Shown here: positions 1,582 through 4,325 of the stretch, one piece after another | How positions within the stretch are numbered: the stretch's first letter is position 1 | How the letters are laid out: each line of letters begins with the position of its first letter | From: a virus | Taxonomy: Duplodnaviria > Heunggongvirae > Uroviricota > Caudoviricetes | Reading direction: 5' to 3' (one strand) | Length of the DNA stretch: 4,325 nucleotides | Virus record (IMG/VR): IMGVR_UViG_3300018478_000173 | Position numbers and translations under genes: made by a program | The notes under the pieces: generated by a model | The model's database searches: none | Told to the model about the DNA's origin: nothing | What the model saw: the letters and a program-made list of their open reading frames with translations, nothing else

Positions 1582-3546
1582 ATGGCATTTAAACACTACG
1601 ATGTGGTCAGGGCGGCATCGCCGTCAGACCTTGCTGAACGACTGACACAAAAACTGAAGGAGGGCTGGCAGCCATTTGGCAGTCCGGTGGCCATCACGCC
1701 TTATACCCTGATGCAGGCCATTGCGGCGGAAGGTGATGTCACCACACCAGTGGCGGTGACCGGTAATGAGGGTAAGGCGGTGGCTGTCAGTGCCACCAGC
1801 GACCCGGAGTATTACTTTGTTGTGGTTCTGGCAGGGCAGTCAAATGGCATGTCGTATGGTGAAGGTCTTCCGCTGCCGGAGACATATGACCGTCCGGACC
1901 CGCGTATTAAGCAACTGGCGCGCCGCAGTACGGTGACACCGGGCGGTGTCGCCTGTAAATATAACGACATCATTCCGGCGGACCATTGTCTGCATGATGT
2001 GCAGGACATGAGCCGTCTTAACCATCCGAAAGCGGAACTGTCAAAGGGGCAGTACGGAACCGTGGGGCAGGGGCTGCATATTGCCAAAAAACTGCTGCCG
2101 TTTATACCGGCGAATGCGGGCATTCTGCTGGTTCCGTGCTGTCGTGGTGGTTCAGCGTTCACCACCGGAGCTGATGGCACATACAGTGACGCTGGCGGTG
2201 CCTCGGAGAATTCAGCGCGCTGGGGTGTGGACAAGCCGCTGTATAAGGACCTTATCGGTCGAACAAAAGCAGCACTGAAGAAGAACCCGAAAAATGTGCT
2301 GTTTGCCGTGGTGTGGATGCAGGGGGAATTTGATTTTGGCGGTACGCCGGCAAATCACGCAGCACAGTTTGGTGCGCTGGTTGATAAATTCCGTGCAGAC
2401 CTGACGGATATGGCAGGTCAGTGCGTTGGTGGCTCTGCTGGCGGTGTTCCCTGGATATGCGGGGACACGACGTATTTCTGGAAGCAGAAGAACGAATCCA
2501 CGTACCAGACGGTGTACGGCAGCTATAAAAACAAAACGGAAAAGAATATCCATTTCGTACCGTTCATGACGGATGAGAACGGGGTGAATGTGCCGACGAA
2601 CAAACCGGAAGAAGACCCGGACATTCCGGGTATCGGGTATTACGGTTCGAAATGGCGTGACAGCTCAGCCACCTGGACGTCACAGGACAGGGCGAGCCAT
2701 TTCAGCACCTGGGCACGCCGGGGGATTATTTCCGACCGTCTGGCAACGGCGATTCTGGTGCACGCCGGGAGAACCGCTGAATTCATTACCGGAAAACAGC
2801 CTGATATGGTGAGGCCCACCGTACCTTCCGGTGAAGGTCCGGAGAGAGAGGCGGAAGCCCCGGCCAGTAAGCGTACCCTGATGAGTCTGCTGGCATCCGG
2901 CGAAGACCTGGCATCACAGGGCTGGCGCTATTATCACAAACCGGCGGGCGGAGACAGTGTTAACAAAAACATTGCTGAAGCGGTGGTCAGTGATGCGGGG
3001 GCTACGGGAGGTAAGGCTCTGCAACTGAACAAACCGGAAAACCACATCTGGTTTCTGGAGCATGATGCAGCCGGACAGGGGGCGGAGTTACTGAAGAAGG
3101 GCGGACGTGTGAGCGTACGGTTTAAGTTGCCGGGTTCACTGGTGCCGAATCAGTTTGCCCTGGGCATTTACTGGCAGTTGTCGTCCCTGCCGGAGGGGGT
3201 GATGCTGTCAGGAGAAGGTAACGATATGCTGATGTCTTTCTTCCTGCAGACGGATACGACGAACCTGAACGCGATGCATCACAGGAAGCCGAATGCGAAG
3301 CTGGATACATTCGGGGTCTTTGATAACGGATGGCACACGCTGGCTTTTGAGTTTGCCGGAAACAACAGCATTCAGGTGACACCAGTACTGGATGAGAAAC
3401 GGGGAGCGGCGTTCACACTGGTGAAGTCACCGGCATCGGGGGCGGTGGACAAACTGCAACTGACCGATATATCAAAATCGGCGACGTATACGCTGCTGAT
3501 TGACAGCATTGCGGTGGAAGTGAACAGCACAGACACTGCGGCATGA
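1582..3546 (+). CDS. nanS-p: Prophage-encoded sialate O-acetylesterase (NanS-p-like), 654 aa: N-terminal DUF1737-like domain, SGNH/SASA esterase domain with the GQSN motif, and a long C-terminal domain
   Basis: Intact 1965-nt ORF. GGAGGA at 1573-1578 just upstream of ATG 1582. GQSN at residues 85-88 (nt 1834-1845), characteristic of the sialate O-acetylesterase branch of SGNH hydrolases. The N-terminus MAFKHYDVVRAASPSDLAERLTQKLKEGWQPFGSPVAITPYTLMQAIAAEG matches, from memory, the DUF1737 N-terminal domain of NanS-p proteins of EHEC lambdoid prophages. Function is from recalled homology, not a search. Confidence 0.9.
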   Translation: MAFKHYDVVRAASPSDLAERLTQKLKEGWQPFGSPVAITPYTLMQAIAAEGDVTTPVAVTGNEGKAVAVSATSDPEYYFVVVLAGQSNGMSYGEGLPLPETYDRPDPRIKQLARRSTVTPGGVACKYNDIIPADHCLHDVQDMSRLNHPKAELSKGQYGTVGQGLHIAKKLLPFIPANAGILLVPCCRGGSAFTTGADGTYSDAGGASENSARWGVDKPLYKDLIGRTKAALKKNPKNVLFAVVWMQGEFDFGGTPANHAAQFGALVDKFRADLTDMAGQCVGGSAGGVPWICGDTTYFWKQKNESTYQTVYGSYKNKTEKNIHFVPFMTDENGVNVPTNKPEEDPDIPGIGYYGSKWRDSSATWTSQDRASHFSTWARRGIISDRLATAILVHAGRTAEFITGKQPDMVRPTVPSGEGPEREAEAPASKRTLMSLLASGEDLASQGWRYYHKPAGGDSVNKNIAEAVVSDAGATGGKALQLNKPENHIWFLEHDAAGQGAELLKKGGRVSVRFKLPGSLVPNQFALGIYWQLSSLPEGVMLSGEGNDMLMSFFLQTDTTNLNAMHHRKPNAKLDTFGVFDNGWHTLAFEFAGNNSIQVTPVLDEKRGAAFTLVKSPASGAVDKLQLTDISKSATYTLLIDSIAVEVNSTDTAA

Positions 3547-3583
3547 TAAAAAAAGCCGCCAGTTACCGGAATGGACTGGCGGT
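3547..3583 (-). terminator. Strong hairpin right after the nanS-p stop, oriented as an intrinsic terminator for the minus strand (A7 on + before the stem, no T-run after it)
   Basis: A-run 3548-3554; stem GCCGCCAGT (3555-3563) with ACTGGCGGT (3575-3583), 9 bp including one G-U; 11-nt loop. It may still slow plus-strand transcription after nanS-p, but it lacks the U-tract of a classic + terminator. Confidence 0.4.
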
Positions 3584-3651
3584 GGTAATACCCATGGAGA
3601 AATATAAAGGAACGATACTTTCGTGCTCTGTTTTTTTAAATGAAAACAGTT

Positions 3652-3667
3652 CTTATTGTCAACAATA
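3652..3667. promoter_or_regulatory. Inverted repeat TTATTG-N4-CAATAA upstream of the small TM ORF; overlaps a perfect TTGACA hexamer on the minus strand (+ coordinates 3656-3661)
   Basis: Read directly; 6-bp arms with a 4-bp centre. Could be an operator or a divergent promoter element. No binding protein can be assigned. Confidence 0.25.
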
Positions 3668-3680
3668 ACGGTAAGAAATT

Positions 3681-3860
3681 ATGACTTTTATTCATCAGGT
3701 GATGCTGTACTTCTGTACGGCAGTCTGTGTGCTGTATCTCCTTTCGGGTGGATACCGGGCCATGCGTGACTTCTGGCGCAGACAGATTGACAAAAGGGCC
3801 GCTGAGAAAATCAGCGCCAGTCAGTCAGCCGGAAGCAAACCCGAAGAGCCGCTCATTTAG
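3681..3860 (+). CDS. Small predicted membrane protein, 59 aa, not in the supplied ORF track (below its apparent length cutoff): hydrophobic N-terminal helix then a basic/polar tail
   Basis: ATG 3681 to TAG 3858-3860. Translation MTFIHQVMLYFCTAVCVLYLLSGGYRAMRDFWRRQIDKRAAEKISASQSAGSKPEEPLI has about 20 hydrophobic residues followed by R/K-rich sequence, a plausible single-pass TM peptide. The Shine-Dalgarno is weak (AAGAAA), and the ORF overlaps, in another frame, the implausible N-terminal extension of the 3727 ORF. Confidence 0.35.
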   Translation: MTFIHQVMLYFCTAVCVLYLLSGGYRAMRDFWRRQIDKRAAEKISASQSAGSKPEEPLI

Positions 3861-3900
3861 CGGCAACTTTCTTAATCACACCTTTCGACGAGAAAATCCC

Positions 3901-4173
3901 ATGTCAGAAATTACATCCCTGGTCACTGCTGAAGCAGTGAAGGACGTCCTGCGCTCTGAAGAAGTCCTGAGCGCACTGAAACAGAAACTCCGCCATAAGC
4001 TGGAAGCACGTCTTGATGCAGAAGTGGATGCCATTCTGGATGAGCTGCTTGGTGTACAGGCAGAGCCAGCGACTGAAGCGGGAGATACCACCGCAGAGAG
4101 CGGTGAAGTTCAGCCTGAATCACCGGTCGCCGATGCGACTGAACCGCAACCCGAATCGGTCATGATGCTGTAA
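3901..4173 (+). CDS. Small hypothetical protein, 90 aa: predicted helical N-terminal half and an acidic, Pro/Glu/Thr/Ala-rich, probably disordered C-terminal tail
   Basis: Chosen start ATG 3901 (MSEITSLVTAEAVKDVLRSEEVLSALKQKLRHKLEARLDAEVDAILDELLGVQAEPATEAGDTTAESGEVQPESPVADATEPQPESVMML). The track ORF 3727..4173 is in the same frame, but its extra N-terminal 58 aa are Cys/Arg/Ser-rich and not protein-like. Stop TAA 4171-4173, followed by a terminator. Confidence 0.6.
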   Translation: MSEITSLVTAEAVKDVLRSEEVLSALKQKLRHKLEARLDAEVDAILDELLGVQAEPATEAGDTTAESGEVQPESPVADATEPQPESVMML

Positions 4174-4183
4174 CGGGGGTCAG

Positions 4184-4213
4184 GGCCATCAGTAAACTGC
4201 TGCTGGCCTTTTT
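4184..4213 (+). terminator. Candidate intrinsic terminator between the acidic-protein gene and the holin gene
   Basis: Stem GGCCA (4184-4188) with TGGCC (4204-4208), extended by CAG/CTG with one mismatch; followed by TTTTT 4209-4213. Confidence 0.5.
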
Positions 4214-4248
4214 CATGTTGTGAGCTTCCGGATTGCGGGAGACGGGGT

Positions 4249-4325
4249 ATGTACCAGATGGAAAAAATCACAACAGGTGTGTCATACACCACGTCAGCGG
4301 TGGGAACGGGCTACTGGTTCCTGCA
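4249..4325 (+). CDS. S: 5' end of a phage holin gene, S21-type (pinholin-like) class II holin with a dual-start motif; continues past the window end
   Basis: GGGAG at 4237-4241, 7 nt before ATG 4249. Translation MYQMEKITTGVSYTTSAVGTGYWFL... has Met1 and Met4 (the antiholin/holin dual start) and resembles, from memory, the N-terminus of phage 21 S ([23 protein letters not shown]...). Confidence 0.8.
   Translation, partial: MYQMEKITTGVSYTTSAVGTGYWFL

Follow-up and report, generated by a model that had tools for sequence, protein, structure and literature searches.

The window analyzed here, a 4,325-nt stretch of phage DNA, carries a nanS-p-type sialate O-acetylesterase gene on the plus strand (1582-3546; Pfam domains DUF1737, SASA, and DUF6645), followed by two small genes of the same orientation, both with an ATG start: one for a 59-aa protein of the DUF1378 family (3681-3860) and, after a spacer of 40 nt (3861-3900), one for a 90-aa protein of the DUF826 family (3901-4173). 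The gene for a class II (S21-type) holin, S, starts at 4249 on the same strand, 75 nt beyond the end of the DUF826 gene, and is cut by the window end (4249-4325). Its product ("class II holin family protein" in RefSeq) begins with MYQMEKITTG..., which provides a dual start at M1/M4 (N-terminus MYQMEK), and its first 25 codons were identical in most related loci. The 59-aa ORF was present in a mechanical ORF scan, and RefSeq annotates both small genes, the identical 59-aa protein being called "DUF1378 family protein". Both small ORFs are real: they are late genes, oriented alike, of a prophage that is lambdoid (Stx-phage-like). In E. coli, the order of the cassette is nanS-p esterase, DUF1378, DUF826, terminator, with the small pair as its distal part; in lambdoid phages, the cassette lies directly upstream of the S21-type holin gene, which is followed by that for an endolysin with an N-terminal SAR-like segment.

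The 59-aa product matched DUF1378 (PF07125) from end to end (residues 1-59 on profile positions 1-59; E 3.2e-38, 130.1 bits, against a Pfam gathering cut-off of 25 bits, which is also that of DUF826) and phrog_494 (PHROG 494; E 9.6e-40). It is a typical member of this family of ~50-64 aa with an N-terminal transmembrane (TM) helix, does not differ from it, and contains its signature LYF..V..LYL.(S/A)GGY. The N-terminal TM helix and basic tail ascribed to it in the preliminary description were borne out by hydropathy (Kyte-Doolittle 19-residue maximum of 1.93 in the window starting at residue 3), by the composition of residues 25-59 (pI 9.98, 8 K+R), and by an AlphaFold2 model consisting of a single helix (residues 2-50; pLDDT 87-89 in the first 20 residues). 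DUF1378 is, thus, predicted to be an N-out/C-in single-pass inner-membrane peptide with a TM segment at residues ~3-24, a basic cytoplasmic juxtamembrane tail, and a periplasmic part of just ~2 residues, the topology being assigned by the positive-inside rule. Conservation of the frame in related loci, proposed earlier as a check, was complete: a frame of 59-64 aa was intact in all 73 related IMG/VR loci with enough flanking sequence. Variable sites were distributed 23/11/35 over the three codon positions, and dN/dS, 0.18 in frame, rose to 1.72 and 2.75 when the two alternative frames were read. Thirteen positions were invariant from E. coli to Stenotrophomonas phages (L9, Y10, F11, V15, L18, Y19, L20, G23, G24, Y25, R29, D37, and K43), and a TM helix so invariant in phages with such distant hosts points to a specific partner within the membrane. 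No holin family was matched by DUF1378 in the Pfam search. A function as o-spanin (Rz1-like) was considered as well, but no lipobox Cys was found; DUF1378 of Stenotrophomonas phages contains no Cys at all, and the residues preceding each Cys of the E. coli protein, as read from the sequence, do not fit a lipobox.

The ORF located 40 nt downstream had been described as encoding a helical head and an acidic, proline-rich tail, and coordinates, composition, and structure prediction all agreed with this. The product matched DUF826 (PF05696; residues 1-68 on profile positions 1-70 of 75; E 2.8e-27, 95.1 bits) and phrog_311 (PHROG 311; E 5.6e-36), and is likewise a typical member indistinguishable in kind from its family, with which it shares a conserved helical head and a variable acidic tail. 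An exhaustive profile search of 1.84 billion proteins yielded just 55 cluster representatives, and the distant homologues P0247 and P0258 lie on short contigs that offer little context. The protein has a net charge of −13.4 and a pI of 4.17; its tail (residues 52-90) contains 9 D+E, 5 Pro, and no K+R. In the AlphaFold2 model, helices at residues 10-17 and 20-49 (pLDDT 83-96) precede a disordered region (55-84). DUF826 is, therefore, predicted to be a cytoplasmic protein with a conserved helical head of ~50 residues (1-51) and a variable, disordered acidic tail. The head has a dN/dS of 0.10, the tail one of 0.53. The tail ends with M-M-L, and an ML or MM terminus is kept in long-tailed homologues. 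Judged by these codon statistics, both DUF1378 and DUF826 are under purifying selection; every indel within the two genes had a length divisible by three, which did not hold for the intergenic region upstream. A Foldseek search of the PDB with the DUF826 model, essentially one long helix plus disorder, gave nothing at E ≤ 0.001. Searching the sequences of solved structures with profiles of DUF1378 and DUF826 returned chance matches alone (E ≥ 0.2), and neither protein had a significant match in NCBIfam. No recognized DNA-binding or antitoxin domain was found in DUF826 by the Pfam, solved-structure, and NCBIfam searches.

An annotation that competes with this gene pair exists in the databases. 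The 933W RefSeq record has one 447-nt CDS here (ST933Wp43) and lacks a DUF1378 gene, and the databases contain many "DUF826" entries of 128-141 aa, which would fit a single 148-aa ORF with a GTG start (3727-4173) as the sole real gene, the 59-aa frame being no gene. The comparative data refute this reading, which is scarcely conceivable: in the upstream extension of the 148-aa ORF, variable sites are distributed 8/24/16, which is the wrong periodicity for that frame and the pattern of the DUF1378 frame, and dN/dS is 0.87 compared with 0.18 for DUF1378. Furthermore, the DUF1378 protein is conserved out to Stenotrophomonas phages, and the DUF826 start (MSEI/MTE) is conserved in every lineage. 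By the same measures of codon periodicity and dN/dS, the long versions of DUF826 in the databases (128-148 aa) and phrog_8301 were dismissed as artefacts of start-site choice or frameshifting. A DUF1378-DUF826 fusion, or a programmed frameshift between the two genes (phrog_8301, P0128, and P0096), was also rejected, the alternative frame being without purifying selection; the two fusions inspected, P0128 and P0096, were interpreted on reading as frameshifted products.

Between DUF826 and S, an intrinsic-terminator-like hairpin followed by U5 is predicted on the plus strand (4184-4213), both from its fold and from comparison of spacer variants. A hairpin with a T-rich run was present downstream of DUF826 in all 20 distinct spacer variants, the run being weaker in a few, and the stem changes on both sides among these variants. 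Also in a Mu-like prophage, DUF826 is followed by a hairpin and a T-rich run. This terminator probably marks the end of the cassette of esterase, DUF1378, and DUF826, and Q antitermination would allow readthrough. A second conserved hairpin (CUUCCG...CGGGAG; 4225-4241, plus strand), found in 18 of the 20 spacer variants, immediately precedes the ribosome-binding site of S and may have a role in controlling S translation. A sigma-70-like plus-strand promoter was looked for upstream of the pair and of the esterase gene, and none was found.

On the minus strand, the region between esterase and DUF1378 contains a candidate antisense sRNA unit (3548-3662) for a transcript of ~80 nt, with −35 hexamer TTGACA (3662-3657), −10 hexamer TTTAAA (3640-3635), and terminator stems (3583-3575 and 3563-3555) followed by U7 (3554-3548). 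The −35 hexamer was present in 36 of 37 distinct upstream variants (TTGACT in three), a terminator hairpin whose stem varies on either side in 30 of the 37, and the minus-strand fold had a z of −2.55. Position, strand, and the layout of promoter and terminator are common to this unit and the published prophage sRNAs PasA and PasC of E2348/69, and alignment with them showed the shared architecture; blastn with word size 7 gave chance-level matches alone to either of the two. An Rfam match to Esr41 (3548-3621, minus strand) scored 25 bits compared with a gathering score of 102. It was rejected because no locus reached the gathering score and because Esr41 is encoded on SpLE1 (PMC5286369).

The two families adjoin in three unrelated genomic settings, which supports the earlier proposal of a genuine two-gene module of a membrane peptide and a soluble acidic partner. 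DUF1378 precedes DUF826 in all lambdoid loci, as it does in Sp18, a Mu-like prophage, and in relatives of Sp18; the order is reversed, with a DUF826-like gene before DUF1378, in three loci (L159, L160, and L162), where the genes lie between a tail-fibre-assembly gene and dam. DUF1378 without DUF826 was found in at least 29 loci, and DUF826-like genes also occur alone. A profile scan of contigs with the DUF1378 alignment gave a single locus, in Cedecea neteri. In every lambdoid variant examined, very divergent DUF826 alleles included, the S21-type holin gene comes next. All 24 loci of the Stenotrophomonas type have the order S21-like pinholin, SAR lysozyme, Rz-like gene, and DUF1378 as last gene, the ATG of which overlaps the stop codon of the Rz-like gene, with which it is translationally coupled. 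This lysis cassette is homologous to that of E. coli phages. Its lysozyme has the N-terminus KLSAAMLALIAAGASAP and the E. coli Stx-phage endolysin GLSAAVLALIAAGASAP, and the two are nearly identical; residues 3, 4, and 6 of the endolysin are basic. A crude simple-pattern search for an o-spanin with a lipobox embedded in the Stenotrophomonas-type Rz-like gene found none. One further locus, L163, has different holins and a different endolysin, yet there, too, an Rz-like gene is followed by a 74-aa gene and, next, by DUF1378. Thus, DUF1378 adjoins or sits inside lysis cassettes in three contexts, and SAR-type endolysins are encoded near it in the lambdoid and Stenotrophomonas contexts. In Mu-like prophages, DUF1378 has no such position at a lysis cassette; the right-end cargo region, with no lysis gene adjacent, is where the genes lie in Sp18 and in other prophages of the Mu-like or P2-like kind, which speaks against a role in lysis.

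Three roles had been proposed in the preliminary description, namely modulation of lysis timing, a toxin/antidote-like pair, and defence or anti-defence cargo, and of these the lysis-related one found the best comparative support, in the Stenotrophomonas-type and L163 cassettes. The literature search revealed no experiment or functional study on either family; the one paper found to name either of them in this context gives "unknown function". By inference from these contexts and by analogy, the pair may be an accessory module of pinholin/SAR-endolysin lysis, built as though the Mu gp25 "releasin" had been split in two; this is considered plausible, if short of probable. The 99 residues of Mu gp25 are arranged N-out/C-in, four of them periplasmic, with a basic motif at the boundary of membrane and cytoplasm and a cytoplasmic domain that is anionic. 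Its gene lies a few genes away from that of a SAR endolysin with basic N-terminal residues, for the release of which gp25 is required (Chamblee et al. 2022, PMC9239132). Together, DUF1378 and DUF826 as predicted would reproduce the layout of this protein (DUF2730), a resemblance in apparent mode of working alone: alignments of DUF1378 and DUF826 with gp25 had hhalign probabilities of 0.15% and 0.07%, which gives no homology, and Pfam DUF2730 was not matched at E ≤ 1. In contrast to gp25, which is one protein, membrane anchor and acidic moiety belong to two separate proteins here, and the DUF1378 tail is itself basic; moreover, Mu lacks a pinholin, whereas the phages considered here encode one.

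In the accessory lysis reading, DUF1378 and DUF826 would cooperate at the cytoplasmic face of the inner membrane, the acidic DUF826 docking on the basic DUF1378 tail; such a partnership is suggested by their complementary charge (pI 9.98 for the tail versus 4.17) and by their adjacency in either order. The pair would then be a dispensable accessory of the pinholin/SAR-endolysin system that tunes the timing or efficiency with which SAR endolysin, pinholin, or both leave their inactive membrane state. Comparable in layout are the antiholins RI and RIII of T4, a small membrane-anchored and a small helical cytoplasmic protein that jointly control holin triggering. The likeness lies in the pairing of a membrane-anchored with a helical cytoplasmic protein; neither Pfam, PDB-sequence, nor fold searches gave any similarity of RI or RIII to DUF1378 or DUF826, RI acts via a periplasmic domain, whereas DUF1378 has ~2 predicted periplasmic residues, and the class II pinholin encoded here is unrelated to the holin of T4. 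Another point against the lysis reading is the conserved terminator located between DUF826 and S, since it sets the pair apart transcriptionally from the lysis cassette. Furthermore, ~70% of closely related E. coli S holin copies are without the pair (8,831 versus 2,653 places), one example prophage has the holin and lacks the pair, and phages of the esterase-holin type without the pair also exist; any role in lysis must, therefore, be non-essential. A more far-reaching version is possible and rather doubtful: DUF1378 would be an unrecognized, widely conserved component of pinholin/SAR-endolysin cassettes from Stenotrophomonas siphophages to E. coli Stx phages and DUF826 its acidic cytoplasmic partner, together forming a two-piece releasin/anti-releasin that times SAR endolysin, lysis, and Shiga toxin release.

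In E. coli, the pair tracks the nanS-p esterase rather than the holin. Identical copies of the pair were found in several complete E. coli genomes, and both families are annotated in about 1000 complete genomes, approximately a fifth, often in multiple copies. Among 5,426 E. coli genomes, the pair was present at 2,653 places in 1,015 genomes, the esterase at 2,732 places in 1,055, and the holin at 8,831 places in 2,435. Records in the phage collection were similarly balanced, with 309 and 306 for the two pair genes and 302 for a closely related esterase. In most sequenced Stx phages, the pair is located between stx/nanS-p and the lysis genes. This match in copy number and genome distribution, as well as in phage records, would be expected if the pair were an accessory of the esterase operon, involved, for example, in membrane tethering, regulation, or release of NanS-p and unrelated to control of holin or endolysin. 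In addition, esterase, DUF1378, and DUF826 have moved as an intact trio into Sp18, where they lie between gin and com/mom with no holin adjacent, one prophage with a truncated esterase also lacks the pair, and the terminator conserved after DUF826 makes the three genes look like a single unit. Nevertheless, an esterase-related function is quite unlikely. In EPEC E2348/69 (PP2 and PP5) and in an Stx1a phage, esterases of this architecture are not accompanied by the pair, DUF1378 occurs, alone or with DUF826, without any esterase (Stenotrophomonas phages, Cedecea, and the L159-L170 loci), and co-variation of the alleles of the esterase C-terminal domain with those of the DUF826 tail was looked for and not found. 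The linkage could be mere block inheritance.

The pair occupies a variable cargo slot between esterase and holin, in line with its earlier placement in a moron hotspot. This variability would also suit moron-type cargo, in which the DUF1378 TM helix binds a conserved host inner-membrane protein (for example a transporter, an enzyme of the cell envelope, or a route of DNA entry) and inhibits or modulates it, and DUF826 serves as cytoplasmic regulator, resulting in superinfection exclusion or host takeover. Such a role is unlikely, despite the high invariance of the helix in phages of E. coli, Cedecea, and Stenotrophomonas, the cargo positions that the genes occupy in Mu-like or P2-like prophages (after tail-fibre genes or near dam/mom), and the terminator that bounds the unit; an array study that listed ECs1211 among the transcripts changed at growth transitions in uninduced cultures adds weakly to these points. 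Like morons of the Hendrix type, which are autonomous units of cargo within late operons, the pair is an optional block among conserved late genes that ends with an intrinsic terminator and is present or absent in similar prophages; unlike them, it has no detected plus-strand promoter of its own. The genes are, moreover, always co-oriented with late genes, no known defence or exclusion family was matched, and DUF1378 of Stenotrophomonas phages is translationally coupled within a lysis cassette. Defence or anti-defence cargo was not borne out either, as PADLOC gave no family at E ≤ 1 for DUF1378, DUF826, or the esterase. The proposed toxin/antidote-like pair fared no better. Small membrane toxins have a size and a layout (TM helix plus charged tail) resembling that of DUF1378, the two genes lie close together whichever comes first, and the disordered DUF826 tail with its conserved hydrophobic end could act as degron of a labile acidic antidote to a membrane-damaging peptide. 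However, DUF1378 is encoded alone in many phages, DUF826-like genes also occur alone, DUF826 has no recognized antitoxin or DNA-binding domain, the PADLOC models that went unmatched include those of the toxin-antitoxin type, and the genes occupy a late-operon position rather than one behind an autoregulated promoter, which together makes this explanation very improbable.

Neither gene is new; DUF1378 and DUF826 were already catalogued and annotated, and as a sequence feature the pair is ordinary. If it tunes the pinholin/SAR-endolysin step, it would influence the timing with which induced cells burst and, by affecting lysis, the amounts of phage, Shiga toxin, and NanS-p esterase released. The comparative picture, which comprises a partnership in either gene order, linkage to the lysis cassette in Stenotrophomonas phages, a terminator-bounded esterase cassette, and an architecture like that of a split Mu releasin, turns "two DUFs" into a few cheap and decisive experimental questions.

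The window comes from an E. coli prophage, lambdoid and Stx-phage-like, and lies in its late region; the segment 3540–4325 is 100% identical to several complete genomes, O22:H8 strains among them. Arranged on the plus strand are four STnc100-type sRNA units in tandem (Rfam family; 376–1355), a nanS-p-type esterase with DUF1737, SASA, and DUF6645 domains (1582–3546), the two small genes considered here, and a class II (S21-type) holin gene, S, of which the first 25 codons are present (from 4249). The small genes lie where the preliminary description had placed them, at 3681–3860 (59 aa) and 3901–4173 (90 aa) on the plus strand, 40 nt apart. The STnc100 copies scored 119–142 bits apiece, each with its own terminator; an Rfam scan of 15 related lambdoid loci found one copy upstream of the esterase in 12, two in one (L065), and none in two. 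According to a Storz-lab preprint, the STnc100 family is related to PasD.

Both products matched Pfam families with scores far above threshold, the 59-aa product DUF1378 over its full length (E = 3.2e-38; PHROG 494) and the 90-aa product DUF826 (E = 2.8e-27; PHROG 311). RefSeq routinely names them "DUF1378 family protein" and "DUF826 domain-containing protein", and their counterparts in prophage Sp5 of O157 Sakai are ECs1210 and ECs1211. Sequence analysis bore out the N-terminal transmembrane (TM) helix and basic tail proposed earlier for DUF1378 (highest Kyte-Doolittle mean over 19 residues 1.93, starting at residue 3; tail pI 9.98), and AlphaFold2 predicted a single helix. For DUF826, the AlphaFold2 model (helices 10–17 and 20–49, pLDDT 83–96; disordered tail) and charge calculation (net charge ∼−13) agreed with the helical N-terminus and acidic, Pro-rich tail that had been described. 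This tail (residues 52–90; window 4054–4170) varies strongly in length and sequence, with in-frame indels of 6–24 nt, but in long-tailed homologues it remains acidic and rich in Pro and still ends, at the C-terminus, in hydrophobic ML/MM. The persistence of these features despite this variability suggests a short terminal motif displayed by a flexible linker.

The DUF1378 frame was intact (59–64 aa) in all 73 IMG/VR loci with enough flanking sequence. When 59 different DNA versions of this region were compared, variable sites were distributed 23/11/35 over its codon positions, with a dN/dS of 0.18 in frame and of 1.72 and 2.75 in the other two frames. The corresponding values were 5/5/29 and 0.10 for the helical head of DUF826 and 21/26/31 and 0.53 for its tail, where every indel was in frame. 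Both genes are real, but ordinary members of two already catalogued DUF families. A GTG-initiated ORF of 148 aa (3727–4173, plus strand) extends DUF826 upstream over the 3′ half of DUF1378 in a different frame; it is the annotated CDS ST933Wp43 of phage 933W, and the long form also occurs among database "DUF826" proteins (128–141 aa) and underlies phrog_8301. It was rejected as a start-site artefact, because the extension shows the periodicity of the DUF1378 frame and is noncoding by codon periodicity and dN/dS. Two DUF1378–DUF826 fusion proteins that were inspected were read as frameshifted products.

When 5426 complete E. coli genomes were searched by megablast, the pair was found at 2653 places (1015 genomes), the esterase SASA domain at 2732 (1055 genomes), and the holin at 8831 (2435 genomes). 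By tblastn, DUF1378 was present in 309 and DUF826 in 306 records of a phage collection, and the esterase in 347 (302 of them at >80% identity). The Mu-like prophage Sp18 of Sakai (L101; NC_002695 5075438–5078087) carries the esterase–DUF1378–DUF826 trio (ECs4993–4995), flanked by the gin invertase and com/mom in a neighbourhood that lacks a holin. In the window, a terminator-like, GC-rich hairpin with a T-rich run (U5; 4184–4213, plus strand) separates DUF826 from S and is kept in 20 of 20 distinct spacer variants, both arms of the stem having changed; a comparable hairpin and T-rich run follow DUF826 in the Mu-like context. The E. coli unit therefore consists of the esterase, DUF1378, DUF826, and the terminator. 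A sigma-70-like plus-strand promoter for the three genes was looked for and not found, which fits the reported increase of nanS-p transcription upon mitomycin C induction (PMC10462455).

The esterase of the Mu-like block (L101, L084–L087) is devoid of the DUF1737 domain, and DUF1378 is found in this context as two rather different alleles. A second conserved hairpin (4225–4241, plus strand), within the 75-nt DUF826–S spacer, abuts the ribosome-binding site and dual start (MYQM) of S and may control translation of the holin/antiholin forms.

Antisense to the late operon, a candidate sRNA gene of ∼80 nt (3548–3662, minus strand) lies in the interval that separates the esterase stop codon from DUF1378. 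Its −35 (TTGACA, 3662–3657), on the strand opposite to DUF1378 and 18 nt ahead of the ATG of that gene, precedes a −10 (TTTAAA, 3640–3635), and its predicted end is a hairpin with U7 (3583–3548) right after the esterase stop codon. Among 37 distinct, very divergent upstream variants, the promoter hexamer is retained in 36 and the terminator, with both stem sides changed, in 30. The published prophage sRNAs PasA/PasC occupy the same place and strand; BLAST-level similarity to the E2348/69 PasA/PasC sequences was not found, and alignment with them revealed a common layout. Identity with Esr41 was rejected, the Rfam match being sub-threshold only. In E2348/69 PP2 (L104; NC_011601 743266–743712) and L107, two tandem minus-strand sRNA-like units replace the pair, one being PasA and the other located directly 3′ of the esterase stop codon, and a plus-strand terminator precedes the holin.

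Distant relatives were sought by a profile-guided IMG/VR scan and in the phage collection. Both families are small: an exhaustive search through 1.84 billion proteins yielded only 55 cluster representatives for DUF826, and among GTDB species-representative genomes DUF1378 was found in one only, Cedecea neteri. DUF1378 also occurs in Stenotrophomonas phage vB_SmeS_BUCT709 and 23 IMG/VR loci (L106, L108–L130; Pfam E = 6e-17), as the last gene of a cassette comprising an S21-like pinholin, a SAR lysozyme, and an Rz-like protein, its ATG overlapping the stop codon of the Rz-like gene. Both the pinholin, 49% identical to that of E. coli, and the lysozyme's SAR segment, which nearly matches the one in the Stx-phage endolysin (LSAA.LALIAAGASAP), are clearly homologous to their E. 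coli Stx-phage counterparts. A simple pattern search of the Rz-like gene found no embedded lipobox-containing o-spanin. Locus L163 differs in its holins and endolysin, yet there too DUF1378 comes after an Rz-like gene, with a 74-aa gene in between. In L159, L160, and L162, a DUF826-like gene precedes DUF1378, opposite to the E. coli order, between a tail-fibre-assembly gene and the dam methylase, without esterase or holin. DUF1378 stands alone ahead of dam in L164–L166, L170, and Cedecea, and one distant DUF826 occurs by itself, with a lysis cassette on one side and terminase genes on the other. Thirteen DUF1378 positions, mostly within the TM helix, are invariant over all lineages compared.

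The two families adjoin in either order and in three settings unrelated to one another, which suggests that they work together; since their charges are opposite, the basic tail of DUF1378 could offer DUF826 a docking site on the cytoplasmic side of the membrane. Of the roles considered beforehand, lysis-timing modulation fared best: judged by gene context, an accessory role in lysis is the best-supported reading for DUF1378, because it recurs in or beside lysis cassettes and, in phages that infect two distant hosts, accompanies a pinholin and a SAR endolysin that are homologous between them. The proposed defence or anti-defence function found no backing, as PADLOC matched no known defence system.

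Other readings place the pair outside lysis. It could be an accessory of the esterase, with which it nearly coincides in the E. coli counts and with which it is also missing where the esterase is cut down to a DUF1737 stub. However, the two can be separated: EPEC E2348/69 PP2 and PP5 and one Stx1a phage encode an esterase of the same architecture but not the pair (PP2 and the Stx1a phage still have a holin), and the dam-linked pair lacks an esterase; this reading appears improbable. Somewhat less improbable, but still unlikely, is cargo directed at a host membrane protein; the invariant TM helix and the loci near dam or mom speak for it, and the coupling of DUF1378 to the Stenotrophomonas-type lysis cassette speaks against it. 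A toxin/antidote pair, as suggested earlier, stays as a rival of very low probability; the families adjoin repeatedly, and each also occurs alone. Searches for structural relatives, solved or predicted, returned none (solved-structure profiles for both families; Foldseek for the DUF826 model), and no experiment on either family was found in the literature.

For the accessory lysis role, the closest characterised analogue, in the sense of a works-like analogy only, is the releasin of Mu, gp25. This protein of 99 aa has an N-out/C-in topology, exposes four residues to the periplasm, and carries a basic motif where it leaves the membrane; its cytoplasmic domain is anionic, and it is required to free a SAR endolysin with a basic N-terminus (PMC9239132). 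DUF1378 and DUF826 resemble this architecture divided over two polypeptides, and the Stx-phage endolysin likewise has basic residues (3, 4, and 6) before its SAR segment. In contrast, profile comparison of gp25 with DUF1378 and DUF826 was negative. The TM/cytoplasm boundary reads VVAGGAVWAMRR in gp25 (Mu locus L188, 2219–2518) and LLSGGYRAMRD in DUF1378, a resemblance of few residues to which hhalign gives no statistical support. The releasin analogy is concrete and testable, and the comparative case made here is for a coupled, dispensable module associated with lysis and the inner membrane and carried along, in E. coli, with the nanS-p esterase.
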